The notes under the pieces are model-generated. The model was not told the origin of the DNA and did not search any database. It saw only the letters and a list, made by a program, of their open reading frames with translations. From Coriobacteriaceae bacterium (GTDB lineage Bacteria; Actinomycetota; Coriobacteriia; Coriobacteriales; UMGS124): a stretch of 64,000 bases of DNA. The stretch lies in contig JAHZGC010000024.1 in NCBI GenBank assembly GCA_019421015.1, positions 862 through 64,861 on the forward strand, given 5' to 3'. Each line of letters begins with the position of its first letter. The first letter of the stretch is position 1. Below, one piece after another: positions 15,783-38,697 of the stretch. The position numbers were made by a program, and so were the translations under genes.

Positions 15783-15926
15783 GGCGGCCGGGTTTGACCG
15801 GCTTGCCAAACCTGCCGTCCGCAGATGCGCACGCTTTGGCAACAACCCGGGCCCGGTTGCATATTAGACTGTGGGTTTCGAATCGTACCCGGCCGCAAGG
15901 CCGCAAGGCCCGAAAGGCGATGGACC

Positions 15927-16814
15927 ATGAGCCAGCAACCCGCAGGTGTTTCCAGTCCAAATTCGGCCGCCCCCGTGCAGCTGCCGTCGGCCGAGGCGCT
16001 GGCGCCGGCCCAGATCGAGGCCAAGGCCGAGGCGCTGGCCGAGGGTAAGGTCAAGCTGCCCGAGGCCAAGTGTTTCGTGCTGGCCATGTTCGCCGGTGCG
16101 TTCATCGCCTTTGGCGCGTCGTTCTTTGGGTTGTGTCTGGGCGACCCCTCGCTGCCCTTCGCGGCGCAGCGCATCTTGGGCGGCGTGTGCTTCTGCCTGG
16201 GCCTGGAGCTGGTGCTGTGCTGCGGCGGCGAGCTGTTCACCGGCAACTCGCTCATGATCTGCGCGGCCAAGAGCGGGCGCGTCAGCTGGACCGACATGGC
16301 CAAGAACTGGCTTTTGGTGTGGGTCGGCAACTTTGCGGGGTCGCTGCTCGTGGTCATCATCATGTATCTGAGCGGCCTGCAGAACATGAACGGCGGCGCG
16401 GTGGGCGACGCCTTTGTGAGCATAGCGGCGGGCAAGGCGTCGCTCGACTGGTTCACCCTCACGTTCAAGGCGATCCTGTGCAACGTGTTCGTGTGCCTGG
16501 CGGTGTGGATCGGGTTTGGGTCCAAGACCGTGGCCGACAAGGTGGTGGGCATCATCTTGCCTATCTCGGCGTTCGTGGCCATGGGCTTTGAGCACTGCGT
16601 GGCCAACATGTTCTTTTTGACCATGGGCCTGGGCTGCCGCGTGGCCGGCTTTGGCGCGGCCGTGGCGAACGTCGACGCGCTCACGCTGGGCGGCATCTGC
16701 TACAACCTGTTCTTTGCCACCGTGGGCAACGTCATAGGCGGCGCGCTGTTGGTGGGCCTGGGGTACTGGTACTGCTACCACAAGGACCCGGCGCAGGAGA
16801 AGCCCGCGGCGTAA
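15927..16814 (+). CDS. focA: Formate/nitrite transporter (FNT) family channel
   Basis: FNT signatures are GGELFTGNSLM and GFEHCVANMFF, with six hydrophobic segments. The start was moved to internal ATG 15927 (MSQQPAG...). The upstream 34 codons of track ORF 15825 look non-coding. Confidence 0.85.
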   Translation: MSQQPAGVSSPNSAAPVQLPSAEALAPAQIEAKAEALAEGKVKLPEAKCFVLAMFAGAFIAFGASFFGLCLGDPSLPFAAQRILGGVCFCLGLELVLCCGGELFTGNSLMICAAKSGRVSWTDMAKNWLLVWVGNFAGSLLVVIIMYLSGLQNMNGGAVGDAFVSIAAGKASLDWFTLTFKAILCNVFVCLAVWIGFGSKTVADKVVGIILPISAFVAMGFEHCVANMFFLTMGLGCRVAGFGAAVANVDALTLGGICYNLFFATVGNVIGGALLVGLGYWYCYHKDPAQEKPAA

Positions 16815-23424: not shown

Positions 23425-23766
23425 GTGGCCCTGCGTATTGGAATCGATCCCCGGCAGCTAGATGCCTCCAAAATCTCCAGCGCGATAAAGCCGGTCTTCG
23501 ATCGTTGGCCTGTTGCCAAGGCGTGGCTGTATGGTTCGGTGGCCCGTGGCGAGCAGACGGAATACAGCGATATCGACATAGCCTTCGTACCGCTTCCTAA
23601 CGCGCGCATTGGGTGGAATATCCTGCATCTTCAGTGTGAGCTTGAAGATGCTCTTGATACCGAAGTCGATATCCAAACGGCTCCCAACAGGCGCATGGCT
23701 AGCAAGAGGTTTCTCCGCGAGTTCGACCGTGACAAGGTGGTTGTGTATGAGCGCTCGGCAGAATGA
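23425..23766 (+). CDS. mntA: MntA-type minimal nucleotidyltransferase (antitoxin of HepT/MntA type VII TA system)
   Basis: The motif is LYGSVARGEQTEYSDIDIAFV (GSxxRG...DxD). I prefer GTG 23425, which follows SD AAGGAGGG, over the track's TTG 23389, which has no SD. Confidence 0.8.
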   Translation: MALRIGIDPRQLDASKISSAIKPVFDRWPVAKAWLYGSVARGEQTEYSDIDIAFVPLPNARIGWNILHLQCELEDALDTEVDIQTAPNRRMASKRFLREFDRDKVVVYERSAE

Positions 23767-24127
23767 CGACAGCAGGATCCAGGAGATTTGGGACAACATC
23801 AACCAGCTTGAGGAACGCATTGCGGCAAGCGAAATGACAGAAGAGCGGTTTATCCACCCGCAGAATCCTGTTGAAGAAACCATTGTTGAGGGTTTGACGT
23901 TTCAGCTGTACAGGATTCTTGAGGAAGCGGCCGCTCTAACAGATAGAACCAAGGGCACATTTTTTGATGCGCCGTGGGATGAGATGCGCGGAATGCGCAA
24001 CCGGTTGGCGCACGATTATCCGGGGACGAACTTCGAAGTTGTATGGGACGCGATTGCGAACAGCATGGATGAGCTCAGGCAGGTGTGTATCGCGTATGGT
24101 TCCATGCGCGGCATAGAGCTAGGCTAG
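23747..24127 (+). CDS. hepT: HepT-type HEPN (DUF86) RNase toxin
   Basis: The Rx4HxY HEPN motif is RNRLAHDY. Internal ATG 23747 overlaps the mntA end by 20 nt, the classic TA arrangement. GC is lower than the surroundings. Confidence 0.8.
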   Translation: MSARQNDDSRIQEIWDNINQLEERIAASEMTEERFIHPQNPVEETIVEGLTFQLYRILEEAAALTDRTKGTFFDAPWDEMRGMRNRLAHDYPGTNFEVVWDAIANSMDELRQVCIAYGSMRGIELG

Positions 24128-24265
24128 CCCCCCCCACTTATTAGTAAAACCTAATCGCCTATAAACCATTCGAATTATGTGTAGCCTCCGCGTGGGCGTA
24201 TATTTTTGGGCCATGGGAGGGCCGTAAGGGGCGGCCCTCGGCTTATCGACAAAGGAGACGCGCCC

Positions 24266-25966
24266 ATGCTCAATGCGCCCATGTCCCACGCACCCATCAC
24301 GCGCAGGAACCTCGTGACCGGCACCGCCGCCGCAGCGGCCGCCGGCGTCTTGGTCGCGGTCCTTCCGCCGCTGGCCCGCGCCGACGAGGCTACCCTTGCG
24401 CCTGCGGCCGATCCTACCGACGTCTGGGGCGACGCTCCGCGCGACCCGGCTGAGTTCGACATCGCCGAGGAGGTCTCGTGCGACGTGCTCGTGGTGGGTG
24501 CCGGCACCGCGGGCATGCCCTGCGCCATCGTGGCCGCCGAGGAGGGCCTGAGCGTCGTGGTGCTCGAGAAGACCCCCACGGGCTTTGGCATGCGCAACTA
24601 CATCGGCGCGGTGGGCTCGGCGCTCCAAGCCGAGAAGGGCGTCGAGATCGACAGGCGCGAGCTCGAGCGTGAGCTTCTCCGCTACTCCTCCTATCGCGCC
24701 AACGCCGCGCTGGTGCGCCAGTGGGCCGAGCGTAGCGGCGAGGCCGTGGACTGGTACTCGGCCATTCTGCAGGAGGCCGGCATGAAGCCGTGGCTCGAGG
24801 TCGACATCAACCCCGAGGGCACCACGCACTTTAAGGAGTACTCCACCTGCCACATGCACTACGACCCCGAGCGCAACGGTCTCACCGAGGGCGCCGTCAT
24901 GGCCGAGCGCATGGCGGCCGCGGGCTGCGACGTGCGCTTCTCGACCCCCATGGTGCAGCTGGTGCAGGAGGACGGCGTGGTGACCGGTGCCATCGCCGAG
25001 CTGCCCGAGGGCGGCTACCTCAAGGTGACGGCCTCGCGCGGCGTGGTGCTGGCCACCGGCGGCTATGCGGGCGACCTGGCCATGGTGCAGGCCCTGAACC
25101 CCAAGGACTACGCCGCCAACGTGATGCTCTACTGCTCGCCAGGCGCCACGGGTGACGGCGTGCGGGTCGCCCACCACGCCGGCGGCCAGATGGACCTGAC
25201 CCACACGGCCATGTACTTCGAGCGCGGGTGCACCATGCCGGGCTCCAAGGGCGGAGACCTCTCGACCCCCGGGCTCTGGTGGATGGGCTCGCAGCCGTTC
25301 CTGCAGGTCAACGCTAAGGGCGAGCGCTTTGCCAACGAGAGCCTGCCCTACGACTACGACCTGCACCAGGCCGCCTGTCAGCCCGGCACGGTCATGGTCC
25401 AGGTGTTCGACGCCAACTGGGTCGACGACGTCAAGGCCTTCCACACCGTTGGTTGCTCGCGCATCGTGGACGTAGCCGACATCCCCAACGGCTACGAGGC
25501 CGTGGCCTGGAGCTTCGACAAGATCAACGCCGCGAGCTTTGGCCCCGCCCTTGAGGCCGGGCAGCTGGTCCAGGCCGATACGATCGAGGAGCTGGCTACG
25601 GCCATGGGTATGGACCCGGCCGTGCTCTCCGCGACGGTCGAGCGCTACAACGAGCTCTGCGCCAAGGGCGACGACGAGGACTTTGGCAAGGAGCCTTGGC
25701 GTATGCGCCCCGTGGCCGAGCCGCCGTTCTACGCGGTGACCGTGGGCGGCCAGCTGCTCTGCACCATGGACGGCATGTGGATCGACACCCAGATGCGCGT
25801 GCTCGACGCCAACGGCGACCCGGTGCCCGGCCTGTATGCGATCGGCAACGACTCGGGCCGGTTCTTCTCGGACTGCTACCCCGAGCTCGTGGTGGGCGTG
25901 GCCGCCGGCCGCTCGCTGACCTTTGGGTACCTGCTGGGCAAGGCGCTGGCCGCTCAAGAGGCCTAA
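24266..25966 (+). CDS. Tat-exported FAD-dependent flavoprotein reductase (fumarate reductase/urocanate reductase-like), paralog 1
   Basis: The Tat signal is MLNAPMSHAPITRRNLVTGTAAAAAAGVLVAVLPPLARA. The FAD fold is CDVLVVGAGTAGMPCAIVAAEEGLSVVVLEK, with GVVLATGGY also present. SD AAGGAG precedes ATG 24266, which is internal to track ORF 24206. Confidence 0.88.
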   Translation: MLNAPMSHAPITRRNLVTGTAAAAAAGVLVAVLPPLARADEATLAPAADPTDVWGDAPRDPAEFDIAEEVSCDVLVVGAGTAGMPCAIVAAEEGLSVVVLEKTPTGFGMRNYIGAVGSALQAEKGVEIDRRELERELLRYSSYRANAALVRQWAERSGEAVDWYSAILQEAGMKPWLEVDINPEGTTHFKEYSTCHMHYDPERNGLTEGAVMAERMAAAGCDVRFSTPMVQLVQEDGVVTGAIAELPEGGYLKVTASRGVVLATGGYAGDLAMVQALNPKDYAANVMLYCSPGATGDGVRVAHHAGGQMDLTHTAMYFERGCTMPGSKGGDLSTPGLWWMGSQPFLQVNAKGERFANESLPYDYDLHQAACQPGTVMVQVFDANWVDDVKAFHTVGCSRIVDVADIPNGYEAVAWSFDKINAASFGPALEAGQLVQADTIEELATAMGMDPAVLSATVERYNELCAKGDDEDFGKEPWRMRPVAEPPFYAVTVGGQLLCTMDGMWIDTQMRVLDANGDPVPGLYAIGNDSGRFFSDCYPELVVGVAAGRSLTFGYLLGKALAAQEA

Positions 25967-26137: not shown

Positions 26138-26320
26138 AATAAATCAATATAGAAGGTAAAATCTCGAAAACGATGGCTTTTGCATGACATGCTAAGAAAA
26201 ATGATACCATGGTTATGGAGATGAGCGAAGAAACGCCTGGATTGGTGTGAATGGTTGCAAACAATATATCATTGTATAAATAATAATCATGCATTTGCCA
26301 TAGATTTTATTGTTGATTGC
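26138..26320 (+). repeat. AT-rich TIR element, copy B
   Basis: It has the same three conserved blocks as copies A and C. The ends AATCAATATAGAAGGTAAAATCT and AGATTTTATTGTTGATT are inverted repeats. Confidence 0.85.
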
Positions 26321-26476
26321 ACGCAAGTAAACCACGGGTTCCGCCTGTGGAGCAACGGACGGTTCCACCGTCCTGTGCCCGTAACTGAAAAACCTCGCCC
26401 TGCCATATTGTCCGCGGCGAGCTGACCGCGGAAGGAAGGGAGAGGTCATGACGAACGAAATGACGTTCGGTATGAC

Positions 26477-26717
26477 ATTCAAACCCACGCTCCCCGCGAG
26501 GGGGAGCGACTCGAGCACGACGGCGCCGGACTCCTCCGGCGTGCAATTCAAACCCACGCTCCCCGCGAGGGGGAGCGACTCGTCCAGCTCGTAGGCCATG
26601 GGGTGGCCGTGGGATTCAAACCCACGCTCCCTGCGAGGGGGAGCGACCTGGATGAGTGGTTCAAGGCGGGGAAGGGTGAGGCCATTCAAACCCACGCTCC
26701 CCGCGAGGGGGAGCGAC
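26477..26717 (-). CRISPR. Orphan mini CRISPR array: 4 repeats of 34 nt, 3 spacers (35, 34, 36 nt); type I-C-like repeat
   Basis: Repeats lie at 26477-26510, 26546-26579, 26614-26647 (one C>T variant) and 26684-26717. The plus-strand sequence is ATTCAAACCCACGCTCCCCGCGAGGGGGAGCGAC. Its reverse complement GTCGCTCCCCCTCGCGGGGAGCGTGGGTTTGAAT follows the I-C pattern GTCGC..palindrome..GCGTGG.TTGAAx, hence the minus orientation. No cas genes occur anywhere in the window. Confidence 0.85.
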
Positions 26718-26904
26718 TGCGGTTCCACGCCTTGCGGCACCGCGGGCAAGAATCGAACAGCTTCTGATTATTATGGCCTCGGCCCGTCCCCGGTAATGCA
26801 AGCCTTCTGGAAGCAGATGGTGAACACCTGACGTATCCCGCGGGCCTTCACGCTCGAGGAGCCCAATGACGAGAGCCTCGAGATTACCTCTGGGAGCGAC
26901 TCGC

Positions 26905-28443
26905 CTACGCCATCTCCCCGCCGCGAGCGCCCCGAGCGACGCCTCCCTCCTCCCACCCCTGCACCAACAGCAGAAGCTCCTGCTTCGAGGCCACGCCGGC
27001 CTTCTCGTAGATGCGGCCGATGTGGGTGCTGGCCGTGCCGTCGGCGATGAAGAGCTTCTCGCAGATGAGCCGGCGGCTGTTGCCCCGCGCCAGCAGTAAG
27101 AATACGTCGGTCTCGCGTTCCGAAAGGCCGAGCGACTTCGCGAGTGCCCGCAGTCCGTCGGAGCCCGGCGGGTCCGAGACGGTCACGATGGCTGCCGGCA
27201 TCTGGGCGGCTTCCGGTGGGTGCACGCCCGTCTCGCCCGAGGCTTTCTCCGCTGCGGCCGCCGCGGACCTCGGGGTGTCTTCGTGCGCCGCGTCGGCGCG
27301 TCCCTGCAGGTCGCGCAGGCTGTTCCCTATGCCGTAAAAATGGTAGAGCGTCCATACGAGCATCGCCAGCATAGCTAAGAAGCCCAGCTGCACAATGACC
27401 AGGTTCAGTCCCTCGTCGAACAAGATGAGGTATTGAAACGCCACGGTGACCCCTGCGTTCACGCTGAACGAGAGTCCCACGAGTCGCCAGGGCCGCATCT
27501 CGAGGGCGTTGAGCGCCAACAGCAGCACGAACCACGAGAACTCCTCGCCGTAGTACTCAGCAAAGTGCTCGATGGTCGCGAGGGCGGCGGGGTCGAGCGG
27601 CAACAGCTGCGAGGTGCCCGAGTAGAGGAACAGGTAGATGGCGAACAGCACGAGCAGCCCGGGCATGAACCGCAGCAGCAGGCTCGACTCAGTCTTGACC
27701 AGCGTCACGTAGGACACGGCGCAAAAGACCACCGACCCCGCGACTAGCGGCCCCAGGCCTTCTCCGGTGAGTGCGAAGGGGTTGCCCCAAAAGCCCGTGT
27801 TGCCCACGGCGCATGCGATGGCAAAGGCCACCGACGATATGACGACCAGTCCGAGCATAACCGTGGAGAGGGGCCGCTCGAACGTGACGCTCTTCATCGG
27901 TGCGGCCACCTGCCCTTCTGCCTGCCGGGCTGCCCAGGTAAGCCCCGTGCACAGCGCCGGCAACAGGCAGAAGAGCGCACGTTCGTCGGTCTCGCCCAAG
28001 ACGGCGTCGGCCCCGTACATGAGCGCGCCCCGCAGTACGAAGACCGCGATGACCGCCACGCCGGCCACCTTGCGGTCGGCGATGCGGGAGAACAGCAGCA
28101 CCTCGGCGACGAGCAGCACGATGTTCGTGTATCCGGTGCCCACGGCGGCCAAGGCCGAGAACGCGAGCGGTACGTCCGAGAACTGGAGCGCGGCCGATGC
28201 GGTCCCTAAAACCGCGCAGGCGCTCAAGGCCGTCCCTTCGTGGCGCTCCAACCACCGGGGGGCGGCGCAGGCCGTGAGCGAAGCCAGCAGCATACCGGTC
28301 AGAAACAGCGTGTGCCCGTCGGCAAAAGCCTGGCGCAGCAGCAGGTCGTGGGCGAGAAACGCGGTCCCGTGGCCGGGGAGGTCGAACCACAGAAAGTTGA
28401 GCGCCATGGCCACGGTGGCCAATGCGACCGCCCTTCTCCTCAT
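26905..28443 (-). CDS. Polytopic-membrane LuxR-type transcriptional regulator (N-terminal multi-TM sensor-like domain, C-terminal LuxR HTH), paralog 1
   Basis: Many hydrophobic segments are followed by LSERETDVFLLLARGNSRRLICEKLFIADGTASTHIGRIYEKAGV. The start was moved to ATG 28443 (MRRRAVALATVAMAL...), preceded by SD GGGGAGGGG. Confidence 0.85.
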   Translation of the reverse strand: MRRRAVALATVAMALNFLWFDLPGHGTAFLAHDLLLRQAFADGHTLFLTGMLLASLTACAAPRWLERHEGTALSACAVLGTASAALQFSDVPLAFSALAAVGTGYTNIVLLVAEVLLFSRIADRKVAGVAVIAVFVLRGALMYGADAVLGETDERALFCLLPALCTGLTWAARQAEGQVAAPMKSVTFERPLSTVMLGLVVISSVAFAIACAVGNTGFWGNPFALTGEGLGPLVAGSVVFCAVSYVTLVKTESSLLLRFMPGLLVLFAIYLFLYSGTSQLLPLDPAALATIEHFAEYYGEEFSWFVLLLALNALEMRPWRLVGLSFSVNAGVTVAFQYLILFDEGLNLVIVQLGFLAMLAMLVWTLYHFYGIGNSLRDLQGRADAAHEDTPRSAAAAAEKASGETGVHPPEAAQMPAAIVTVSDPPGSDGLRALAKSLGLSERETDVFLLLARGNSRRLICEKLFIADGTASTHIGRIYEKAGVASKQELLLLVQGWEEGGVARGARGGEMA

Positions 28444-28822
28444 GACCCCTCCCCGTTCGTGGTCGGAATCGTCCCGACGCGCGCTTCCTCCCCTGGGCTT
28501 CCTCTGCGCCCATGGAAGCAAAATACCACGTCCGGCCTTTTTTGGGGTCCCCGATGGGCTTGGCTTGGGGGCCGAGGCGGCAAATCGGAGGTTTTGGTGA
28601 CATGTCGCCCGGGTCGCCGGGGCATCTCGGGCACGCCGCGAGGTCAATGGGTGGTTTTGGCTATATGGGCAGCCCGTGGAACGGGGCCATCATGGGGGTG
28701 TCGCGGGCGAGCGGGCCTTGCGGTTTTGGAAGGACGGAAGAGGCCGGCCCATCCGGACGCACGAGATGCGCGAGACGTGCGAACGAACATGCAACAGACA
28801 TCCAAGAAGAGAGGGGATTACC

Positions 28823-30328
28823 ATGGCGACAATCGACCTGTCGAGGCGTGGGTTTGTGGGAGCGGGCATGGGCATGGGGGCCCTGGCGGCCGCTGGGGCG
28901 CTAAGGGCTTTGGCCGACGAGAAGCCCGCGGGCGACGTGGTGCCTAGCTCCCTGGGCGGCTCGGCCGACGCCGAGGGTGAGGTGCCCATGTGCGAGTTCA
29001 CGCCCGGCGGCGGGTCGTTCGCCGAGGGTGCGCTGCCCGGCTGGGACGGCACCCCGCCCGAGATCGAGGCCGTGGGCGGCTCCACCATGCCCTTGGCCGA
29101 GCTCAACCGCCGCCGCCACGCCTACTACGACGCCGCCGAAGACTATGTCAAGGAGGACGGCACCGTCGTGCCCGCCTGGGCGGTCAAGATTCGCCGCGTG
29201 GTGCACGCTTACGGCATGGGCTACGCCAACACGCCCTTCGACACGAGCTTCGACTACATCATGCAGTGCTTTACCGAGGACGATGCCAAGGCCTACGCCG
29301 ACGAGATGCCGGCCGGCCAGCTTTTCAAGGCCATCGACGTGGCGGCGGCCGGTGGCCGTACCCTCGAGGAAGCCGAGGCCATTTGCGAGAAGTTCGCCGA
29401 CAAGGGCTTTTTGCGCCGCACCGTGCACGACGACGGGGTCATGTACAACCACGTGCCGTGGTTGCAGGGCGTGAGCGAGTACGAGCTCCACGAGATGCTC
29501 AACGACTTCGACAACTGGGTGATCGCCGACTCCCAGGCCGGCGCGTTCCACCACTTGGCCTATAACTACGGCGGAAGCCCCTACTTCTATGTGATGCCTT
29601 GCGACAAGTCTGTCGTCGCCGAGGGCGATATGCTCCTTTACGACGACTACGAGGCCGTGGCCGCCAACCACAACAAGTTCTCGCTGTCACCGTGCTGGTG
29701 CCGTACCCTGGCCATGCGCATGGAGGGCTACGACACGCCCGATCTGCAGTCGCCCGACTGGGACGGCGTGATGTCGCCGGTCTGCGGCCATCGCATGGAG
29801 ACCTGCCTGTCCTTCGGCGATGAGGCCGAGTACTGGATCCACATGGGCTTTGGCCGCGAGATCACCCGCGAGGAGGCCCTCGAGTACCTGCGTCGCAGCC
29901 GCGACGACGGGTTTATCCTCCAACACATCTTTGCCAAGGACATGGGCACCGTGTGCTCCTGCCACGGTGACTGCTGCGGCATCATTGGCGAGTGGCGCGC
30001 CCTGGGTGGTGCGGCCGATATCGAGAACGCCCGCGCCTTCAAGCAAATCAGCCACTACAACCTGGTAGTCGACACCGATTCCTGCCTCAAGTGCGGCACC
30101 TGTGCTGAGCGCTGCCCGCTCGACGCCATCACGATGGACGAGGAGTCGGGGCTGCCCGTGGTGAACGACCTGTGCTTCCGCTGCGGCCAGTGCGCCTACG
30201 TGTGCCCCGCCGGCGTCCGCTCCCTCGTTGCGCGTCCGGCGGAGGAGAACCTCGAGGTGCCCTACACCCTGGTCGACGACGGTAACCAGAAGGCCGCCTT
30301 CCGCTTTGAGCACGGCATGATCTGGTAA
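28823..30328 (+). CDS. Tat-exported Cys-rich iron-sulfur protein of unknown function with C-terminal 2x[4Fe-4S] ferredoxin domain
   Basis: The Tat signal is MATIDLSRRGFVGAGMGMGALAAAGALRALA. Cys clusters are SPCWCR, SPVCGHRMETC and CSCHGDCCG. These are followed by CLKCGTCAERCP and CFRCGQCAYVCP. SD AGAGGGG precedes ATG 28823. The CxCR...CxC..CCG plus ferredoxin layout recalls a widespread, uncharacterised family usually annotated only as 4Fe-4S binding protein (from memory, unverified). Confidence 0.75.
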   Translation: MATIDLSRRGFVGAGMGMGALAAAGALRALADEKPAGDVVPSSLGGSADAEGEVPMCEFTPGGGSFAEGALPGWDGTPPEIEAVGGSTMPLAELNRRRHAYYDAAEDYVKEDGTVVPAWAVKIRRVVHAYGMGYANTPFDTSFDYIMQCFTEDDAKAYADEMPAGQLFKAIDVAAAGGRTLEEAEAICEKFADKGFLRRTVHDDGVMYNHVPWLQGVSEYELHEMLNDFDNWVIADSQAGAFHHLAYNYGGSPYFYVMPCDKSVVAEGDMLLYDDYEAVAANHNKFSLSPCWCRTLAMRMEGYDTPDLQSPDWDGVMSPVCGHRMETCLSFGDEAEYWIHMGFGREITREEALEYLRRSRDDGFILQHIFAKDMGTVCSCHGDCCGIIGEWRALGGAADIENARAFKQISHYNLVVDTDSCLKCGTCAERCPLDAITMDEESGLPVVNDLCFRCGQCAYVCPAGVRSLVARPAEENLEVPYTLVDDGNQKAAFRFEHGMIW

Positions 30329-30493
30329 GTGCTCCCGCACCGCTTTTCCGCCGCAGGGGCGGGCCCGGGGCTGCCATCTCGCCTTTCGCGTGGTGTGGTG
30401 GGAGCGCCCTGGGTTCGCCCCGGCCCGGCTGTCCGTGCACCGCGGTTGCCCCCCGTGTTTCGCTGTGCCCCGTTCCGAAAGGTGGTCTTTTCT

Positions 30494-30880
30494 ATGCACG
30501 AGATGTCGCTTATGAAGAACGTCCTGGCTATCGTGCTCGACGAATGTGCGGGCAAGGGCGTGGTGGCGGTCAAGGAGGTGAGCCTCACCATTGGCGAGCA
30601 ACGCGACGTGGCGGTCGAGTACGCCGAGGGGCTGTTTCGCTTCTTGGCCCGGGGGACTGTGGCCGAAAAGGCCACGCTCAAGGTGAGGCGCGTGCCGTTC
30701 ACCGTGCGCTGCATGGAGTGCGGCGACATCTTTAAGATAGATACCCGCGATCCCGAGACCTGGGCCTGCCCGCGCTGCGGTGTGCGGCAGCGCTACCGGG
30801 TGTTCAGCGGCCACGAGTTTCAGGTCGACGCGATCGAGGTGGAGCTGGCAGGGGAGCGCGGTGCCGGTACGGCGGCGTGA
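30494..30880 (+). CDS. hypA: HypA/HybF-type nickel metallochaperone (orphan copy)
   Basis: The N-terminus MHEMSLMKNVLAIVLDE carries the MHE nickel site. The zinc ribbon is CMECG...CPRCG. The protein is 128 aa, with SD GAAAGGTGG. No other hyp or hydrogenase genes occur in the window. Confidence 0.8.
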   Translation: MHEMSLMKNVLAIVLDECAGKGVVAVKEVSLTIGEQRDVAVEYAEGLFRFLARGTVAEKATLKVRRVPFTVRCMECGDIFKIDTRDPETWACPRCGVRQRYRVFSGHEFQVDAIEVELAGERGAGTAA

Positions 30881-30974
30881 GGGACGGGAAAGGGTGTGGG
30901 GGTTCGAGGCTGGGGCGCACGGGATTGGGGCAAGAGGCTGCAAAGCACGCTGCGGGGTTTACGATGAGGATGAT

Positions 30975-31157
30975 GTATCAGCTGAGAAAGTGAAATCTCG
31001 AAAATGATGACTTATGCATGGTATAATGTGAAAAATGATACTAGTACTATGGAGACGGCCAAAGAAATGCCTGGAACGGTGTGAATGGTTGCAAAGATTA
31101 TATCAAATGTGGGAATTTATACCATGCATTTGCCATAGATTTTACTATTGATTAAAT
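30975..31157 (+). repeat. AT-rich TIR element, copy C
   Basis: Its conserved blocks are GAAATCTCGAAAATGATGACTTATGCATG, AAAGAAATGCCTGGAACGGTGTGAATGGTTGCAA and CCATGCATTTGCCATAGATTTTACTATTGATTAA. Confidence 0.85.
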
Positions 31158-31240
31158 TGTCTAGACAGGTCACCGTTGGGAGGTGCGGGCTCGAAGTAAC
31201 TTCGCCTGCCAACGGCGAACTACACTACGGAGGAGCAGGT

Positions 31241-31283
31241 TAATCAATAGGAAAAACAATAACTATTACTATTGCATGATACT
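31241..31283 (+). repeat. Partial or collapsed copy of the AT-rich element (left-TIR-like TTAATCAATAGGAAAAA ... TTGCATGA)
   Basis: TTAATCAATAGGAAAAACAATAACTATTACTATTGCATGAT resembles the first ~45 nt of copy A (TTAATCAATATAGAAAG...TTTTGCATGA). It abuts the stop of the LuxR gene at 31299. Confidence 0.5.
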
Positions 31284-31298
31284 TCCCCCTGCCCGCTT

Positions 31299-32888
31299 CT
31301 ACCCCCGCCCCTCATCCTTCTCGCGTTGTGCCTCCAGAAGGTCGAGCACCTGCTGGCGGTTGTGCACACCGAGCTTGCGGTAGAGGTTCTTGCAGTGGGA
31401 GCGCACGGTGTTCTCGGACACGTAGAGGGTCTCGGCCATATGGGCCACGTCGCGGCCGCGCACGATGAGCTCAAGGACGTCGGCTTCGCGGTTCGAGAGC
31501 TTGAAGTCCCGCTTGAGGGAACTGCAGTAGCTGGGCACCATGTCTTGCACCACCACGACCCGGCGCGTCATGACATGCTCCTGCGCCTCTTGGGCGGCGT
31601 CCGGCATGAGGGGGGTGGACGGCGTGGGAACGGGTGCATCTTTTGGTTCGGATGTGGCCCCGCCGTCTGGGAGGGTCCGAGTGTCGCCCAGGATCGGGTC
31701 GAAGTCAGACGCTTCGCCCGTGCCGCGGATCATGCCTACGATCGCCCCAGAAAACGAAAGGACGTAGATCGAGAGAAGTGCCACGACGAGCAGCTGGGCC
31801 ACGTCGAGGCCTTCTCCAAAAGCCGCTCCCACCAGCCTTCCCACCAAAACGCAAAGGTAGACCGAGCCGGCAAACAGGCCGAAGACTGCTATGGGGTCGA
31901 GGTTGCGCAACCGGGCGATACGCAGGCAGGTGAGCATCATGAACATCGACACGAGGGTAAAGGCCAGGTTGGCGATGCCTGCGAAGACCGCCCGGTACTC
32001 GCTTGCCATAAAGGGCAGCAGCAGGAAGCCCGTGATGATGCCGAAGAATATGACTACGTAGGCGCCCTTAAAGGTGAACGAGCGATGTAGGCCTTCCCAA
32101 AGCCATAGCAGCAGGATCGCCGCCACCAGCATGCCTGCGGCGAGCAGGGTGTTAAGCAACAAGGCGTCGGTCTGGGTGCTGCGTGCCATGACGCGGGTGA
32201 CTCCGCTTACATAGCCTACCGTGGCCACGCAGAGGACCGATCGCCAGATGCTTGAGGCGAGTCCCCCCAACCCTGCACCTGGGGTTCGGGCGATAAGCAG
32301 CCCGTCGGCCGGAGGCGTTGCAGCTCGGTCGAAGAGCTTTGCGGTGCATGCCTTGAGGAAGGCGGCGTTCAAGACGATGAGCGCAAAGACCGCCACTCCA
32401 TAGGCAGTCACCTGTTGGACGAATGACAGGGCGAGGTAGAGCAGACCGCCCAGGGCGGTGCCCAGTACGATTGTGCGGTTCGCCTGCATGGGTTCCATGC
32501 TCGCCATAACGCGCTGCCAGGCCACCAACGAGAGGGCATGGGCCATTCCCACCAGAACTGCGGAGCAACCGAGAAGCACCTGGGCATCCTGTCCACAGGA
32601 GGAGAACGCGAAAAGCCCCGCGTAGCCCAACGTCCAAGTAATGGTGGAGGGGACGGTGGTGTTGCGGTTGAACAGGCCGTTCAAGTACAGGCAGCCGAAC
32701 CCGAATGAGAACAAGGTTGCTATGAACCCGGTCGAGCGAAAGGTCTCGAAGGCCGTCAGGTCGGCGGCGGCGATGCCCGAGAGGTGCACGAGGGTGATAA
32801 GGCCCCAGGCCGAGGTCGACCCAAGGGTGAGGAAGATGCCGAAGCCCAAAGTGGCGATGACGGTGGGACTCATGCGGAGAAAGGACAT
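31299..32888 (-). CDS. Polytopic-membrane LuxR-type transcriptional regulator, paralog 2
   Basis: The protein is 529 aa, with many TM segments followed by LSNREADVLELIVRGRDVAHMAETLYVSENTVRSHCKNLYRKLGV. SD GAGGAA precedes ATG 32888. Confidence 0.88.
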   Translation of the reverse strand: MSFLRMSPTVIATLGFGIFLTLGSTSAWGLITLVHLSGIAAADLTAFETFRSTGFIATLFSFGFGCLYLNGLFNRNTTVPSTITWTLGYAGLFAFSSCGQDAQVLLGCSAVLVGMAHALSLVAWQRVMASMEPMQANRTIVLGTALGGLLYLALSFVQQVTAYGVAVFALIVLNAAFLKACTAKLFDRAATPPADGLLIARTPGAGLGGLASSIWRSVLCVATVGYVSGVTRVMARSTQTDALLLNTLLAAGMLVAAILLLWLWEGLHRSFTFKGAYVVIFFGIITGFLLLPFMASEYRAVFAGIANLAFTLVSMFMMLTCLRIARLRNLDPIAVFGLFAGSVYLCVLVGRLVGAAFGEGLDVAQLLVVALLSIYVLSFSGAIVGMIRGTGEASDFDPILGDTRTLPDGGATSEPKDAPVPTPSTPLMPDAAQEAQEHVMTRRVVVVQDMVPSYCSSLKRDFKLSNREADVLELIVRGRDVAHMAETLYVSENTVRSHCKNLYRKLGVHNRQQVLDLLEAQREKDEGRG

Positions 32889-33195
32889 GCCGGTTCCTCA
32901 CGGGTCGGATGAGCGCTGGGTTTGGCGTACAGGATAACCGGTGGCACCGGTTTTATATGCGACGATGGCAAAAATCACCCGTGCCATGGGAGGGATGGTA
33001 CGTTGCGACGTGCTTGCGTGCGACGGCGGCCCGGAGAGGTGAACGCACAAAACCACCCGCGCCATGGGAGGCGGCTCCGCGGGGGCACCGTATCGTTGAT
33101 GACAGCGCGGCCCATTGCGATGGGCAATAACGAGGCCGCGGTATTGTCCGCTGTGCCCGCAGCACGGGCACGTCGAGATCATGGAGGTTTGTTTT

Positions 33196-34917
33196 ATGGC
33201 CGAGCACACCATTGCCTTCGACCGCCGCAAGTTCATCAAGGGAGCCGCCGTTGCCACCGCCGGCACGATGGCCCTTGGATGCGTGGGTGCCGCCGGTGCC
33301 GATGGCACCGTAGCGTTGAGCGCCGAGACCGTCAACAACGGTTCCTGGGCGTTCGAGGTGGCTCCCGACCCGGTGTCTGAGGACCAGATCGCCCAGACGT
33401 ACGAGGCCGACGTAATCGTGATCGGCGCCGGCGTGTCGGGCCTTGTGTGTGCGGCGTCCGCCACCGAGGAGGGTGCCGACGTCATTCTGTTCGCCGCCAG
33501 CTCCACGCCGGTCTCGCGCGGCGGCTCCAACCACGGCATCGGCACCAAGATGCACGAGCGCCTGGGGATCACCGACTATACCAAGGACACCATTTCTGGC
33601 ATGTTCAAGCGCGAGCTCGCCCGCAACGGCTACCTGGTTGACCAGAAGAAGTGGTGGCGCTGGGCAAACAACAGCGCGCCGATCATGAACTGGCTCATCG
33701 ACCTCATGGAAGACGCCGGCTACACCACCACGATGGAGATCGGCTACGACGACCCCGACGGCACGTTTACCGCCCATCCCGGCTCGCACAACTGGGTCGA
33801 GGTCTGCGACGGCGTGGAGTCGGGCGCCCGTACCGGCGAGAACCTGGTCATGAACCTGCTGGCCGACAAGGTGCAGGCCCAGGGTGGCACCATCCATTAC
33901 AAGACCGTGGCCCAGTACCTTGAGCGCGAGGATGACAACACCGGCCGCGTGACCTCCGTGGTGGCGCTGGACCCCGATGGCAACTACGTGCGCTACGTGG
34001 GCCGCAAGGCGGTGGTCATGGCCACCGGTGATTTCTCGGCTAACCAGGACATGATGGCCAAATACTGTGGCTGGGTTGCCCCGCTGCTGCAGTATAACGA
34101 GATAGACTACGACGCTGCCTTCCAGTTCGGTGGCCTGGGCGGTGGAGACGGTCAGAAGATGGGCCTGTGGGTGGGGGGCGCCTGGCAGCGCTGCCAGCCC
34201 AACGCCCCCATGATCGACGCCGTGGGCCCGATGCCGTACCGCCAGTCAATCGCCGACTTCTCGGGGCTGCTGCTCAACAAGAAGGGCGAGCGCTACTCCA
34301 ACGAGGACACGATCTTCTCGTACGGCACCTACGCCATGATGATGCAGCCCGACATGACGCGCTATGGCATCTGGGACAGCGCCTACGCCACCTGGTTCCC
34401 GCAGTGGGAGACCTTTGGCGCCACCATCGTTGAGAACGAGGGCAAGAACTTCTTTACCCCCGAGCAATACAAGGAGCAGTGGGACGCCAACGTCGAGAAC
34501 GGCACGTTCGTCAAGGGCGACACCGTGGAGGAGGTGCTGGCCCAGCTCGAGGGTCTCGACGCCGAGCAGGCCGCCCAGTCGGTGGCGCGCTACAACGAGC
34601 TGTGCGCCGCAGGCTACGACGAGGATTTCCACAAGGAAGCGACCCTGCTCGCCCCCATCGCCGAGGGCCCCTTCTACGGGTGCAAGCTCACCATGGGGCC
34701 TGCCAACTTCCTGTGTGTGACCGGCGGCCTGCGCACCAACGAGAAGATGCAGGTCTGCGAGGAGGACGACACCCCCATCGAGGGCCTGTACAACCTCGGT
34801 ATCATGGCGGGCGATTCTTACGGCAACTGCTACAACTTTGCCATTTGCGGCCACAACCTGGGCATGAACTGCATCACGCTGCCCTACCTGCTGGGTAAGG
34901 AGCTTGCTGAGGCGTAA
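33196..34917 (+). CDS. Tat-exported FAD-dependent flavoprotein reductase, paralog 2
   Basis: The Tat signal is MAEHTIAFDRRKFIKGAAVATAGTMALGCVGAAGA. The FAD fold is ADVIVIGAGVSGLVCAASATEEGADVILF, with AVVMATGDF also present. SD GGAGG precedes ATG 33196, which is internal to track ORF 33115. Confidence 0.88.
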   Translation: MAEHTIAFDRRKFIKGAAVATAGTMALGCVGAAGADGTVALSAETVNNGSWAFEVAPDPVSEDQIAQTYEADVIVIGAGVSGLVCAASATEEGADVILFAASSTPVSRGGSNHGIGTKMHERLGITDYTKDTISGMFKRELARNGYLVDQKKWWRWANNSAPIMNWLIDLMEDAGYTTTMEIGYDDPDGTFTAHPGSHNWVEVCDGVESGARTGENLVMNLLADKVQAQGGTIHYKTVAQYLEREDDNTGRVTSVVALDPDGNYVRYVGRKAVVMATGDFSANQDMMAKYCGWVAPLLQYNEIDYDAAFQFGGLGGGDGQKMGLWVGGAWQRCQPNAPMIDAVGPMPYRQSIADFSGLLLNKKGERYSNEDTIFSYGTYAMMMQPDMTRYGIWDSAYATWFPQWETFGATIVENEGKNFFTPEQYKEQWDANVENGTFVKGDTVEEVLAQLEGLDAEQAAQSVARYNELCAAGYDEDFHKEATLLAPIAEGPFYGCKLTMGPANFLCVTGGLRTNEKMQVCEEDDTPIEGLYNLGIMAGDSYGNCYNFAICGHNLGMNCITLPYLLGKELAEA

Positions 34918-35044: not shown

Positions 35045-36853
35045 TTACGCCTGCGAGGCGTACAGCCCGGCGATATAGCCGGCAGTCTGGACCTTGCCCA
35101 GGCCGTGGGTGTGCATGCCGCCGGCGCACTCGCCGCAGGCGAACAGGCCCTCGATGGGCTCGCCTGCCACCGTGAGCACCTGACGGTGGCCATCGGTGCG
35201 CAGGCCGGTCAGGGTGTCGTGGGGCACCGGGGTCGACCAGGCGGCGTAGAAGGGGCCGGTCTCGATCTTCTTGGTCATGAGGTCGGGCGACTTGCCGAAG
35301 TCCTCGTCCACGCCGCCGTCGACCATCGAGTTGTAACGCTCTACGGTCTCCGCGAGCACCGCCGGGTCCATGGGGTAGTCCTCGTAGTACTTGTTCACGA
35401 TGTTCTGGGCCAGCTCCTCGATGGTGTCTCCGCTGAAGAAGTAGCCGTTCTCGGTGTCGACGTCGGGATACTCGCAGTTAAAGCCCTCGCTTGCCGCGTA
35501 GTCGGCGTCAAAGATGGTCCACAGGGGCCCGCCCACGCGGCGCGCCTCGGGGGTGCCCTCGTCGAGGATCACGCTGCCGAAGCAGGCGGCGAAGTAGTCC
35601 CACATGCCGTCGCCGTCGGAGTAGAAGCCGTTCTGGGCGTCCTCGTCGTAGAAGCGCTTGCCGAGCATGTTCACCTGGATGGCACCGTCGAAGTTGTAGA
35701 GGTAGAGGCCCTTGGCGCCGGCGAACTCAAAGACCGGCGACTCGGTGTCCCAGCGCAGGTTCTTGTAGCCGTAACGGCACCCGGCGCCGATGGCCGCGGC
35801 AAAGGGCCACTTGCACTGCACGGTCCAGTTGGCCGTGGAGCCCAGGCCGGCGCCGATGGCCATGCCCGCGATCTCGCCCGAGGCGTCGGCGTAGCTAAAG
35901 GGCTCGCCGGCCACACCGTCGTACTCCTGGGTCCAGCGGGGGTCGAACATGGTGCGGTACTCCACGTTGCTCATGCCGCCGCCGGTGGCCAGGATCACGG
36001 CCTTGTTGGCCTTGAAGGTGAGCTCGGAGGTTTCGTCGACGATGGCCTCGTCGCCGTGGAGGCCCACCAGCTGGGTGCCGTCCTTGAGGAAGCGCGGGGT
36101 GTAGCTGGCCCGCACGCCCACCACGCGGCCGTTCTCGTCCTGGATCAGGGCGTCCATGTGGCGGTTGTACATGAAGTCCACGCCCTCTTTAAGGGCGGTC
36201 TCCTCAAAGGGGCGGGTGACGCCGATGCCGTTGAGCTCGCCCTCGTTCACCTTGCCGTTGGTGAGGTTCACGTAACCGGTGGGGTCGGCCGGGGCCTTGC
36301 GCGCCACGGTCTCGCAGTCGGTGCCGCCGTCTTCCATGTAGGTCTTGTACATGCTCGGTTCCTGGTCGACCATCTTCATGCCCTTGGAGAGCATCCACTC
36401 GAAGCACTCGACGCTGCGGTTGGCGAACTCGCGCACGATCTCGCGGTCATTGAAGCGCGAGTCGAGGGGCACGGGGTTGGTGTGGTCGAGGTAGACCTGC
36501 TCGGCGCTGTCCTCGATGCCGTACTCCTGCTGGATCGAGGTGCCGCCGCCCGAGTGGGTGAGGCCGTGGGAGAGCGCCGCGTGGCCGCCCATCTCGAAGT
36601 TGGCGTCGATGCAGATGACCTTGCAGCCTTCGTCGTTGGCCTTGAGGGCGGCGAGCAGGCCCGCCCCGCCGGCGCCGCAGACCACGATGTCGTACTCGTA
36701 GTCCCAGCTCTCGGGCACGGCGGTCTCGGCCGCCTTGGCGGTCATGGTCTTGAGCAGGCCGGTCTGCGAGGCCGCCGTTGCCGCGGCGCCGAGGCCGAGG
36801 GCGCTCATACCGGTGACGAATCCCCTGCGCGAAACATCGCTGCGTGCTGCCAT
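35045..36853 (-). CDS. Tat-exported FAD-dependent flavoprotein reductase, paralog 3
   Basis: The Tat signal is MAARSDVSRRGFVTGMSALGLGAAATAA. The FAD fold is YDIVVCGAGGAGLLAALKANDEGCKVICID, with AVILATGGG also present. SD AAGGAGG precedes the start. Confidence 0.9.
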   Translation of the reverse strand: MAARSDVSRRGFVTGMSALGLGAAATAASQTGLLKTMTAKAAETAVPESWDYEYDIVVCGAGGAGLLAALKANDEGCKVICIDANFEMGGHAALSHGLTHSGGGTSIQQEYGIEDSAEQVYLDHTNPVPLDSRFNDREIVREFANRSVECFEWMLSKGMKMVDQEPSMYKTYMEDGGTDCETVARKAPADPTGYVNLTNGKVNEGELNGIGVTRPFEETALKEGVDFMYNRHMDALIQDENGRVVGVRASYTPRFLKDGTQLVGLHGDEAIVDETSELTFKANKAVILATGGGMSNVEYRTMFDPRWTQEYDGVAGEPFSYADASGEIAGMAIGAGLGSTANWTVQCKWPFAAAIGAGCRYGYKNLRWDTESPVFEFAGAKGLYLYNFDGAIQVNMLGKRFYDEDAQNGFYSDGDGMWDYFAACFGSVILDEGTPEARRVGGPLWTIFDADYAASEGFNCEYPDVDTENGYFFSGDTIEELAQNIVNKYYEDYPMDPAVLAETVERYNSMVDGGVDEDFGKSPDLMTKKIETGPFYAAWSTPVPHDTLTGLRTDGHRQVLTVAGEPIEGLFACGECAGGMHTHGLGKVQTAGYIAGLYASQA

Positions 36854-37230: not shown

Positions 37231-38697
37231 ATGGCCGAAGAGCCCCGGGGGAGCAAGACGGGAGACGAGTCGCAGCCGTGGGTTTCGAGCGCGGTGCTGT
37301 GCCTGGCGCTCTCGCTGTCGTTCACCTCGACATGGCTTCTCAACGCCGTGGGCTACCCGGCTGTCGACGGGTTCTGCCCTCAGGGGCGCCTCGTCGCCCC
37401 GCTGGTGGGGGCCCTTGCGGCGGCGTTGTTCTCACTGCTCTCCCAGAATCACCCCCGCCTGTTCACCGCGCCTTTTACGCTGTGGGCAACCCTGGCCGGC
37501 ATCGTGGTGTCAACGGCGGGCATCTATCTTGCGGTGCCGGTGGAGAACGGCCTGCTTGCCGGCGCCTCCCTTTGCGTGCGTTGGGTGGCCTGTGTGCTGC
37601 GCGACATCGTGCTCGGTTTTGCGATAGCGGGCCTGGGCGCACGCCGCTGCGCGCTCGTTCTGGTCTTTGCCTATCTGCTGCGCTACGTGTGGGCGGCGCT
37701 TTTGGGCTGTCTGCCCGACGAGGCCCAGGTGGCGGCCTTCTTCTGCTGTGCACCGGTGGGGTTGCTTTTGCTCTGGCGGCAGGCCCGCCCCCTGTTGGCG
37801 CGGGTGGAGGCCTTGGGTGCGCCGGCGAGCCTGCGGGTCACGAACCCCCTGTCGTTCTTGCCCTCCACGGGGCGTATGTTCGGGCTGATCCTGCTGTTCC
37901 ATGCGGCTTTGGGATTCTCGACCACCTTTGGGTCCGGGTCCTATGTGCGCGGGTCGATCGCTGCGGTCGTTGGGCTGCTCGCCCTGTTCGGCGTGTTGGC
38001 CGCATTGGTGGGCGCGGGGGTCGTGAGGTCTGCCGACGCCCTGTATGCGGGGTCGTACCTGCTGGCTACGGCGGGCTTTTTGCTGGTGCCGGGGCTGGCG
38101 GGCAGGGGCGTCTTTGCCCACTTCTGGTGCAACGCCCTGTGCGAGGCGGGGTCGTCGCTGTTCTCGCTGGCCTTGTGGTACCTGGTGGCGCGGGTGGGGG
38201 CCCGCAGCCCGGCCGCGATGCTTCCCTTTGTATGCATGGTGCGTTCGGCGCGCGGGTTTGGTATAGCGCTCGGCACCTGGGGCGGGGTGTTCGCCAACGT
38301 GCTCGCCTTTGACCGCGTGGAGTCGGTGTCGGTGTTTGTGGCCGGCGTGGTGTTCGTCTTCTGCGCCTACAACTTTTTGTTCGCCCGGCGTTTCAGCTTC
38401 GACGCCGCCGCCGAGGGGCTGGCCCCCCTCCACGAGGCCCCTGCGGTGACCGAGCCGAGCGAGGAACATGCCCCGGCGATCGAGCGCTCATGCGAGGCTG
38501 TGGCCGCGCGCTGCCAGCTGACCGCCCGCGAACTCGACGTGCTGCTCCTGCTGGCCCGCGGCCGCAACGCCGCCTATATCCAGGAGGAGCTGGGCCTGAC
38601 CCGCAGCACCGCCAAGTCCTACGTGGCCGACGTCTACCGCAAGCTCGATGTGCATTCGCATCAGGAGCTTATCGACGTGGTCGAGGGGCGGGAGTAG
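37231..38697 (+). CDS. Polytopic-membrane LuxR-type transcriptional regulator, paralog 3
   Basis: The protein is 488 aa, with many TM segments followed by LTARELDVLLLLARGRNAAYIQEELGLTRSTAKSYVADVYRKLDV. SD GGTGGAGG precedes the start. Confidence 0.88.
   Translation: MAEEPRGSKTGDESQPWVSSAVLCLALSLSFTSTWLLNAVGYPAVDGFCPQGRLVAPLVGALAAALFSLLSQNHPRLFTAPFTLWATLAGIVVSTAGIYLAVPVENGLLAGASLCVRWVACVLRDIVLGFAIAGLGARRCALVLVFAYLLRYVWAALLGCLPDEAQVAAFFCCAPVGLLLLWRQARPLLARVEALGAPASLRVTNPLSFLPSTGRMFGLILLFHAALGFSTTFGSGSYVRGSIAAVVGLLALFGVLAALVGAGVVRSADALYAGSYLLATAGFLLVPGLAGRGVFAHFWCNALCEAGSSLFSLALWYLVARVGARSPAAMLPFVCMVRSARGFGIALGTWGGVFANVLAFDRVESVSVFVAGVVFVFCAYNFLFARRFSFDAAAEGLAPLHEAPAVTEPSEEHAPAIERSCEAVAARCQLTARELDVLLLLARGRNAAYIQEELGLTRSTAKSYVADVYRKLDVHSHQELIDVVEGRE

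Follow-up and report, generated by a model that had tools for sequence, protein, structure and literature searches.

A LuxR-linked iron-sulfur protein with a predicted Tat signal and an IsrA-type six-cysteine domain, and its HypA partner, in a Coriobacteriaceae bacterium

Why should a gene for a HypA-type metallochaperone lie beside those for an exported iron-sulfur (Fe-S) protein and a membrane-bound regulator? The question is raised by a three-gene cassette in a 64,000-nucleotide (nt) stretch of a Coriobacteriaceae bacterium (GenBank assembly GCA_019421015.1, contig JAHZGC010000024.1, positions 862 to 64,861), which was analyzed as a whole and is hereafter called the window. In the cassette a gene for a polytopic LuxR-type regulator stands divergent to one for a Fe-S protein with a twin-arginine translocation (Tat) signal, which is followed by hypA. 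Among the open reading frames (ORFs) of the window we detected no gene for a hydrogenase, urease or carbon monoxide dehydrogenase (CODH), and none for HypB or of the Nik type, the first three of these absences having already been recorded in the original prediction, which was made from the sequence alone. We show that hypA is a dedicated, conserved partner of the Fe-S gene, and that the N-terminal region of the Fe-S protein is homologous to the six-cysteine (Cys6) domain of the putative isoprene reductase IsrA and its kin. With moderate confidence, we posit that the cassette is a self-contained substrate-inducible reductase module, made up of a LuxR sensor, a nickel-dependent Cys6 Fe-S enzyme and its own HypA. 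The features of the cassette are as follows, with lengths in amino acids (aa) or nucleotides:

26905..28443, minus strand: polytopic LuxR-type regulator of 512 aa, with about 10-12 predicted transmembrane segments; GerE helix-turn-helix (HTH) domain at residues 440-492, hydrophobic N-terminal ~400 aa.
28444..28822, no strand: divergent intergenic region, 379 nt between two start codons; presumed from its position to be the promoter region of regulator and enzyme.
28823..30328, plus strand: Fe-S protein gene, 501 aa, with a Tat signal and a C-terminal 2x[4Fe-4S] domain.
28823..28915, plus strand: Tat signal peptide, residues 1-31, with the SRRGFV motif, a hydrophobic stretch and an ALA/DE cleavage-type site.
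29240..29467, plus strand: winged-helix-like subdomain, about residues 140-215, from weak Foldseek and weak Pfam matches.
29585..30052, plus strand: Cys6 subdomain, about residues 255-410, the proposed catalytic metal site, with invariant C291, C293, R294, C328, C378, C380 and C385.
30062..30217, plus strand: 2x[4Fe-4S] ferredoxin domain, residues 414-465, the presumed point of electron entry (Pfam Fer4, Fer4_21, Fer4_7).
30329..30493, plus strand: spacer of 165 nt between the Fe-S gene and hypA, defined by position.
30494..30880, plus strand: HypA-type metallochaperone, 128 aa (PF01155), with MHE at 30494-30502, CMEC at 30710-30721 and CPRC at 30767-30778.

The coordinates, the Tat signal, the cysteine clusters, the two ferredoxin motifs and the ~165-nt spacing of hypA, as first described, were all verified in the sequence. 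The hypA gene starts exactly 165 nt past the stop codon of the Fe-S gene, with a ribosome-binding site (AAGGTGG) 9 nt upstream, and its product matches PF01155 with 90.4 bits (cutoff 28.9, E 1e-25), displaying MHE at residues 1-3 and the motifs CMEC and CPRC at residues 73-76 and 92-95. A scan of one genome per species yielded 48 loci with full homologues of the Fe-S protein, which come from Eggerthella, Gordonibacter, Raoultibacter, Adlercreutzia, Rubneribacter, Slackia, and some Lachnospiraceae and Acutalibacteraceae bins. We observed hypA within 2.5 kb of 31 of the 50 assessable Tat-type Fe-S genes (62%; Eggerthellaceae and some firmicutes), usually 50-220 nt downstream; counted by locus, the pairing occurs in 29 of 48 related loci as against none of 23 control loci, a contrast not due to chance. 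The controls go back to 25 loci (232 kb) fetched via the ferredoxin motif alone, two of which contain hypA, one together with a fragment of the Fe-S family and the other with an IsrA-like gene, leaving 23 true controls. The gene for the HypB GTPase (PF02492) lies near 12 of the 50 Fe-S genes, and in some loci, such as L012, hypA and hypB flank the Fe-S gene. The MHE nickel site and the pair of CxxC motifs are each retained in 33 of 34 paired HypAs.

The LuxR/Fe-S/HypA triad is seen in full again in relatives (loci L079 and L080), at protein identities of 84% and about 50% and amidst different flanking genes, so that the neighborhood is conserved. The 65 closest relatives of the window HypA among 5.8 billion proteins are of the same type, and all three that were sampled blind to their genomic context (47-57% identity, including that of the isolate Arabiibacter massiliensis) directly follow a gene for a 486-525-aa Fer4 protein of the Fe-S family, with no hyp or hydrogenase gene near any of the three. 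The identities of Fe-S proteins and of their partner HypAs co-vary (Mantel r 0.52, a value reached in none of 2000 permutations), a correlation to which common species phylogeny contributes. Moreover, single loci may contain two hypA copies, each adjoining its own Fe-S paralogue (L010, L011 and L029). Where two pairs thus share a locus the Fe-S proteins are 34-36% identical and the HypAs only 43-58%, which points to old duplicates rather than to a shared generic chaperone. The linkage also varies with the type of regulator encoded next to the Fe-S gene: hypA accompanies 14 of 15 copies linked to LysR, 8 of 12 linked to LuxR and 3 of 10 linked to TetR, and co-occurrence of the Fe-S family with both hypA and LuxR, which the original prediction had suggested profiling, is thereby seen to recur across genomes. 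Hence, 'orphan', the word originally used for this hypA, is wrong, as the gene is a dedicated partner of the Fe-S gene.

The names given to these HypAs in databases, namely hydrogenase maturation factors, suggest another account, under which the gene would serve the maturation of a [NiFe]-hydrogenase encoded elsewhere in the genome and its adjacency to the Fe-S gene would be incidental; genes for [NiFe]-hydrogenases and hyp genes are indeed present in the Eggerthellaceae. However, an adjacency found at 31 of 50 homologues and at none of 23 controls, the paired paralogues occurring twice per locus, and the lack of hyp or hydrogenase neighbors at the sampled closest relatives of the window HypA all argue against a gene tied only to hydrogenase loci, as does the same linkage at IsrA, the host of which lacks a [NiFe]-hydrogenase (PMC10134865). 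We regard this account as close to refuted. As a separate observation, genes for ATP-binding cassette (ABC) transporters of the Opp/Nik or FecCD type stand beside hypA/hypB in three Fe-S loci (L025, 5804-9495; L035, 8905-13133; L087, 7984-10411), and these may be dedicated metal-uptake systems.

What, then, is the protein that HypA accompanies? The Fe-S gene starts with ATG, with GAGAGGGG, a good ribosome-binding site, lying 7 nt upstream of the start, and the 501-aa product agrees with that of public gene calls. Its N-terminus, MATIDLSRRGFVGAG...ALRALA/DE, constitutes a twin-arginine signal, with SRRGFV as the S/T-R-R-x-F-L-K-type motif, followed by the h-region and an AxA site. The assignment was made from the motif and from homologue records rather than by a dedicated Tat predictor: R8 of the motif is kept in at least 90% of 78 homologues, and PF10518 (TAT_signal) is recorded for two of them (P0078 and P0131). 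As it carries this signal, the protein is predicted to be extracytoplasmic. Its cysteines fall into the motifs SPCWCR (289-294), SPVCGHRMETC (318-328) and CSCHGDCCG (378-386), followed by the ferredoxin motifs CLKCGTCAERCP at 421-432 and CFRCGQCAYVCP at 451-462. Pfam recovers only Fer4 families at residues 414-465, with neither PF00384 nor PF00890, and the ferredoxin part alone was matched in a profile search of PDB sequences and in NCBIfam. This domain accounts for about 50 of 501 residues, and the protein differs from simple 2x[4Fe-4S] carriers in that a conserved 350 aa form a separate domain.

The roughly 350-aa N-terminal region returned no Pfam, NCBIfam, PDB-sequence or Foldseek-PDB match besides a weak winged-helix part, which sets the protein apart from the characterized families of ferredoxin-type carriers. 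AlphaFold2 (AF2) models of the full-length protein and of the N-domain have mean predicted local distance difference test (pLDDT) scores of 89 and 80, with residues 1-39 below 50. Foldseek searches of the PDB with the two models gave nothing at E <= 0.001, and picked out only the ferredoxin and MarR/TrmB-like winged-helix parts, the latter through weak matches of the N-terminal region to winged helices of the MarR/TrmB/CadC type (template-modelling score about 0.5, E 0.006-0.3). Similarly, Pfam searches with 23 N-domains at E up to 1 gave only weak winged-helix matches (TrmB/MarR in 11 of 23). Reductive dehalogenases, the CCG domain of HdrB, the ferredoxin:thioredoxin reductase (FTR) and acetyl-CoA synthase (ACS) were considered as relatives and rejected, none being supported by any search; the FTR catalytic subunit and the CCG domains, in particular, matched none of the 23 members in Pfam at E up to 1 and were not recovered by Foldseek in the PDB.

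Despite its lack of a named relative, the N-terminal region displays a distinctive pattern of conservation. C291, C293, R294, C328, C378, C380 and C385 are invariant in 23 diverse members of the family as well as in 78 close homologues, defining the signature CxC...C...CxC...C, and a few glycines and glutamates are also invariant across the 23 diverse members. We propose that the six cysteines form a single metal site. The original prediction had left the catalytic type as uncharacterized, which stands insofar as the relatives are biochemically uncharacterized, but no longer holds for the N-domain, which is homologous to the IsrA-type Cys6 domain with its published link to HypA and HypB.

IsrA is a putative isoprene reductase of 901 aa from Acetobacterium wieringae ISORED-2, with an unassigned N-terminal region of ~270 aa (Kronen et al. 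2023, PMC10134865). Its Cys6 site, at which a predicted substrate tunnel ends, combines the CxC motifs C180/182 and C254/256 with two further cysteines; the rest of the protein comprises four [4Fe-4S] clusters and an NfnB-like module binding flavin adenine dinucleotide (FAD) and NAD(P)H (PMC10134865). The isr operon includes two hypA genes, one hypB and a gene for a 350-aa 'ferredoxin' homologous to the N-terminus of IsrA, and among 988 IsrA homologues hypA lies within five genes of 73% and hypB of 56% (PMC10134865). The organism has no [NiFe]-hydrogenase, and the authors proposed nickel at the Cys6 site (PMC10134865). We found the IsrA architecture in a 915-aa protein of an Oscillospiraceae locus (L074), in which the N-domain is followed by Fer4, Fer4_20, Pyr_redox_2 and a C-terminal Fer4, and whose gene has hypA immediately downstream. 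A hidden Markov model of the N-domain (A2) matches the N-terminus of this protein with 84 bits, and in hhalign the N-domain alignment matches it with a probability of 99% (E 2.5e-18) over 255 columns with all three cysteine motifs in register. Hence, the window protein carries an IsrA-type Cys6 domain. Judged from its sequence, it is a distinct Tat-dependent architecture, in which this domain, without the flavin module, is predicted to be exported. The central idea connecting HypA and Cys6 has already been published for IsrA (PMC10134865); the new part is the exported, LuxR-linked form.

This form belongs to a large family. We recovered 119 clusters of homologues of the Fe-S protein at 30-99% identity, all of them unnamed or labeled '4Fe-4S binding protein', and an exhaustive HMMER search with residues 60-410 gave 636 representative clusters. 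These include the Tat forms of ~460-520 aa, very abundant cytoplasmic forms of ~360 aa, and fusions to FMN_bind, Rossmann or NfnB-like modules; the best 120 matches in a profile search with the N-domain alignment are ~360-aa cytoplasmic forms only. In two proteins (P0244 and P0247) the family domain is joined to a C-terminal FMN_bind domain or to an N-terminal Rossmann/FAD domain. FMN_bind is typical of flavinylated extracytoplasmic electron-transfer proteins. Thus, as read from these domain architectures, the Cys6 module appears to be combined with different electron-input modules. Individual assemblies encode up to 6 family genes, with at least two in 14 of 32 assemblies, and the neighboring regulator differs between copies, being of the LuxR, LysR or TetR type. 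Such paralogue expansion with copy-specific regulators points to a substrate-diversified family of enzymes and not to a housekeeping electron carrier.

Accordingly, a catalytic role for the Fe-S protein is favored over that of a carrier. The carrier view would have the protein merely as an exported electron-transfer subunit that feeds a neighboring Tat-exported flavin reductase, such as that encoded at 24206-25966. It derives some appeal from the 2x[4Fe-4S] ferredoxin being the sole recognizable domain, from the exported flavin reductases of the window having no known electron donor, and from the 350-aa homologue of the same domain that accompanies IsrA in the isr operon and is annotated as a ferredoxin (PMC10134865). 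Yet the Fe-S gene is divergent from a LuxR gene of its own and travels with LuxR and hypA, not with a flavoprotein gene (L079, L080, L085, L086 and L087), and the protein has an extra conserved domain of 350 aa with the invariant Cys6 and arginine. The paralogue expansion with copy-specific regulators is also of the kind typical of substrate-diversified enzymes, and in IsrA-type proteins the same domain ends the chain of clusters, beside the predicted substrate tunnel (PMC10134865). We therefore consider the carrier view improbable.

Two further observations concern the reading of this family in databases. Some proteins of 720-860 aa (P0163, P0169, P0174 and P0189, and L087 50-2299) unite a LysR regulator with a Fe-S member on one strand, and these could be genuine fusion proteins or the product of gene calls that ran on in high-GC DNA. 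A 'second Fe-S paralogue' obtained in the first clustering was rejected as an artefact of single linkage via such LysR-Fe-S run-on ORFs, the neighbors in question being LysR regulators.

How might the expression of the cassette be controlled? The sole Pfam match of the regulator is its GerE/LuxR HTH, and its N-terminal ~400 aa are strongly hydrophobic with many segments of transmembrane length, as gauged by a crude hydropathy scan that gives no exact number of them. Full-length homologues (40-42% identity over ~500 aa) adjoin Fe-S homologues in L029 and L045, and a divergent GerE-domain protein adjoins the Fe-S gene in both L079 and L080. The window was said to hold three other modules pairing such a regulator with a FAD reductase, and indeed a GerE domain and a FAD_binding_2 domain were found in each, with the regulators at 31299-32888, 37231-38697 and 55155-56690 and their partners at 33115-34917, 35045-36853 and 53144-54850. 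Regulators of this kind with 10-12 transmembrane segments, namely DadR, HcdR and CadR, switch on adjacent reductase genes upon exposure to the enzyme's substrate (Dong et al. 2022, PMC9734109). In Eggerthella lenta they were counted beside molybdenum (19) and flavin (50) enzymes only (PMC9734109), and the reductase survey of Little et al. was likewise confined to PF00384 and PF00890. The Fe-S family is unmentioned in both Dong et al. and Little et al., and a search of 8 million papers on HypA, nickel and Eggerthella gave nothing relevant.

No sigma-70-like site was scored in the divergent region (28444..28822), and an alignment of this region with that of L079, in a search aimed at a conserved operator, shares short conserved blocks only. 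The spacer between the Fe-S gene and hypA (30329..30493) contains no promoter-like or terminator-like site and has no Rfam match, making it plausible that the two genes are co-transcribed across it. A regulatory RNA in the spacer was considered and rejected, as the GC-rich fold is not significant (z -1.9 versus shuffles) and the DNA is unconserved in L079. In other strains with an identical Fe-S protein and hypA (L082 and L083), similarity to the window begins only at 28301, which falls near codon 48 of the LuxR gene; upstream of this breakpoint type I-C cas7-cas4-cas1 replace LuxR, leaving a Fe-S/hypA pair without the regulator as a natural 'LuxR-deleted' comparison.

We accordingly envisage the reductase module to work as follows. 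By analogy with DadR, HcdR and CadR, the LuxR protein would respond to a small molecule outside the cell by switching on the divergent promoter. In the cytoplasm, the 501-aa catalytic subunit would gain its two [4Fe-4S] clusters and a special metal center at C291/C293, C328, C378/C380 and C385, to which HypA would deliver nickel, aided by a HypB encoded elsewhere in the genome. The folded, cofactor-loaded enzyme would then be exported by the Tat system; periplasmic [NiFe]-hydrogenases likewise receive their cofactors ahead of export. On the far side of the membrane, electrons from the respiratory chain might enter the ferredoxin domain via a partner protein, and the Cys6 site might reduce the inducing compound. 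Because the only relative that has been studied, IsrA, putatively hydrogenates the C=C bond of isoprene (PMC10134865), the enzyme would most likely act on a compound of dietary or host origin, reducing in it a poorly activated C=C or a bond of similar kind.

The nickel in this scheme has to be weighed against an iron-only Cys6 site, consisting either of a [4Fe-4S] cluster with a redox-active disulfide (FTR-like CxC) or of a non-cubane or double-cubane cluster. The enzyme would still be catalytic, and HypA would act as a paralogue-specific zinc-ribbon assembly factor or Tat-proofreading factor. CxC pairs are known as Fe-S/disulfide motifs, as Kronen et al. noted when drawing the analogy of Cys6 to ACS and FTR (PMC10134865). 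Many members of the family keep the six cysteines without an adjacent hypA, the window hypA has no hypB, and dedicated, co-diverging HypA paralogues would suit a protein-specific chaperone. Against this, the N-terminal MHE nickel-binding triad persists in 33 of 34 paired HypAs, hypB, the product of which is the Ni/GTP-dependent partner of HypA, is adjacent in 12 cases, Opp/Nik-type ABC genes stand beside hypA/hypB in L025 and L035, and Pfam matches to the FTR catalytic subunit or CCG domains are lacking. On balance we consider an iron-only site unlikely, though deserving of serious attention.

Several points weigh against the nickel-dependent reductase module itself. HypB and a nickel transporter were looked for across the window, and neither was found; nor does the cassette encode an electron-donating partner or a membrane anchor. 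The window HypA scores 78 bits with TIGR00100, below the equivalog cutoff of 88.1. An adjoining hypA is found at only 3 of 10 genes of the TetR-linked Tat subclade and at 0 of 5 genes for the ~360-aa cytoplasmic forms, although both groups retain all six cysteines, so that the Cys6 site alone does not imply dependence on HypA. The link to IsrA (VUZ27132.1) was made via the L074 protein, a proxy of the same architecture. Finally, preprints of 2026 still hold IsrA to be uncharacterized and its nickel hypothetical.

If the nickel proposal is true, the cassette would represent a new type of nickel enzyme and a new class of HypA/HypB clients outside hydrogenase and urease, and would offer the isoprene-reductase field a simpler, single-module relative. 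More broadly, we tentatively suggest, as a possibility that falls short of being probable, that a third class of inducible reductases acting outside the cytoplasm exists in gut Coriobacteriia and some firmicutes. These would have a new Ni-Fe-S six-cysteine center in a fold without a solved relative and a paralogue-specific HypA, and might carry out reductions beyond the scope of flavin and molybdenum enzymes, for instance of C=C bonds that lack activation, as in terpenoids, stilbenes or polyunsaturated lipids. Surveys of the reductase arsenal of Eggerthellaceae counted flavin (PF00890) and molybdopterin (PF00384) enzymes only and thus missed a multi-copy family wired to the same substrate-sensing regulators as the reductases that were counted. 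It has been invisible so far because its putative catalytic domain has no Pfam model and its annotation reads just '4Fe-4S binding protein'. The built-in LuxR sensor makes the question of the substrate experimentally tractable, and genetic tools exist for E. lenta. To our knowledge, several transformations carried out by gut Coriobacteriia, such as the cleavage of the catechin C-ring, have no assigned enzyme.

The window as a whole (G+C ~65%) has the gene content typical of Eggerthellaceae, with several Tat-exported FAD_binding_2 reductases, selA, selB and tRNA-Sec, and formate-dehydrogenase-like molybdoenzymes. A selenocysteine island extends over 1-3153 (minus strand) and 7881-14213 (plus strand), with selA at 7881-9431, selB at 9428-11404 and tRNA-Sec at 11909-12001; it includes two molybdopterin oxidoreductase genes broken by an in-frame stop, which are probably formate dehydrogenases with a selenocysteine-encoding UGA, and a FocA-type channel gene lies at 15825-16814. 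At 23609-24127, just upstream of a flavoprotein gene, an ORF encodes a HepT-like ribonuclease domain, HepT being the toxin in HepT/MNT pairs. Between a flavoprotein gene and the LuxR gene of the cassette, a ~36-nt repeat (ATTCAAACCCACGCTCCCCGCGAGGGGGAGCGAC), present four times with a period of 68-70 nt, forms an orphan mini CRISPR array with three spacers (26468-26720); no cas genes are present in the window, and the ORF at 26213-26749 is the translation of the array. On the other side of the cassette, hypA and the next LuxR gene converge on an AT-rich island of ~340 nt (30950-31290), with four promoter-like sites (0.7 expected), two pairs of inverted repeats of 20-21 nt and no Rfam match. It may harbor a small RNA or a small ORF, or be what is left of a mobile element.

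Several known systems invite comparison with this cassette. The LuxR modules of the Eggerthella type (DadR/Dadh, HcdR/Hcdh, CadR/Cadh and Cgr) share with it the architecture of the regulator, a divergently encoded Tat-exported redox enzyme and multi-copy expansion, but the enzyme of the window belongs neither to the molybdopterin (PF00384) class of reductases nor to the flavin (PF00890) class, and its cassette includes a metallochaperone gene. With the maturation of [NiFe]-hydrogenases it has in common a HypA with MHE and a Cys4 zinc site, a HypB GTPase at many loci and the prospect of Tat export after cofactor insertion; unlike in those systems, neither large or small hydrogenase subunits nor hypCDEF are encoded nearby, and the client is unrelated to hydrogenases. 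ACS holds nickel by Cys-Gly-Cys beside a [4Fe-4S] cluster, and its A-cluster, like the [4Fe-4S]/disulfide center of FTR, is a six-cysteine site including CxC-type motifs. The order and spacing of the motifs differ in both, no similarity of sequence or fold was detected, and we take this as a resemblance only.

Closer are the 350-aa '4Fe-4S ferredoxin' of the isr operon and the ~360-aa cytoplasmic proteins annotated as RnfB/PreA-like, in which a winged-helix and Cys6 domain likewise precedes 2x[4Fe-4S] and the same C, C, R, C, C, C and C are invariant. They differ from the window protein in having no signal peptide and a Cys-richer second motif (CxCCxCCC), and the ~360-aa proteins also lack an adjacent hypA, with 0 of 5 here and none reported by Kronen et al. 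(PMC10134865). IsrA and its 'clade 9' homologues share with the window protein an N-terminal domain of ~270-300 aa, with two CxC motifs 74-87 residues apart and two further cysteines, followed by a [4Fe-4S] ferredoxin motif, as well as the strong genomic linkage to hypA and often to hypB. In contrast to IsrA, the window protein (501 versus about 900 aa) has neither the NfnB/GltD-like FAD and NAD(P)H module (PF07992, PF14691) nor the second pair of clusters, and possesses a Tat signal and an extra N-terminal extension of ~100 residues. Its gene is linked to a membrane LuxR regulator rather than set in a Fur/TetR-type context, and genes of the window type form multi-copy paralogues in the Coriobacteriia.

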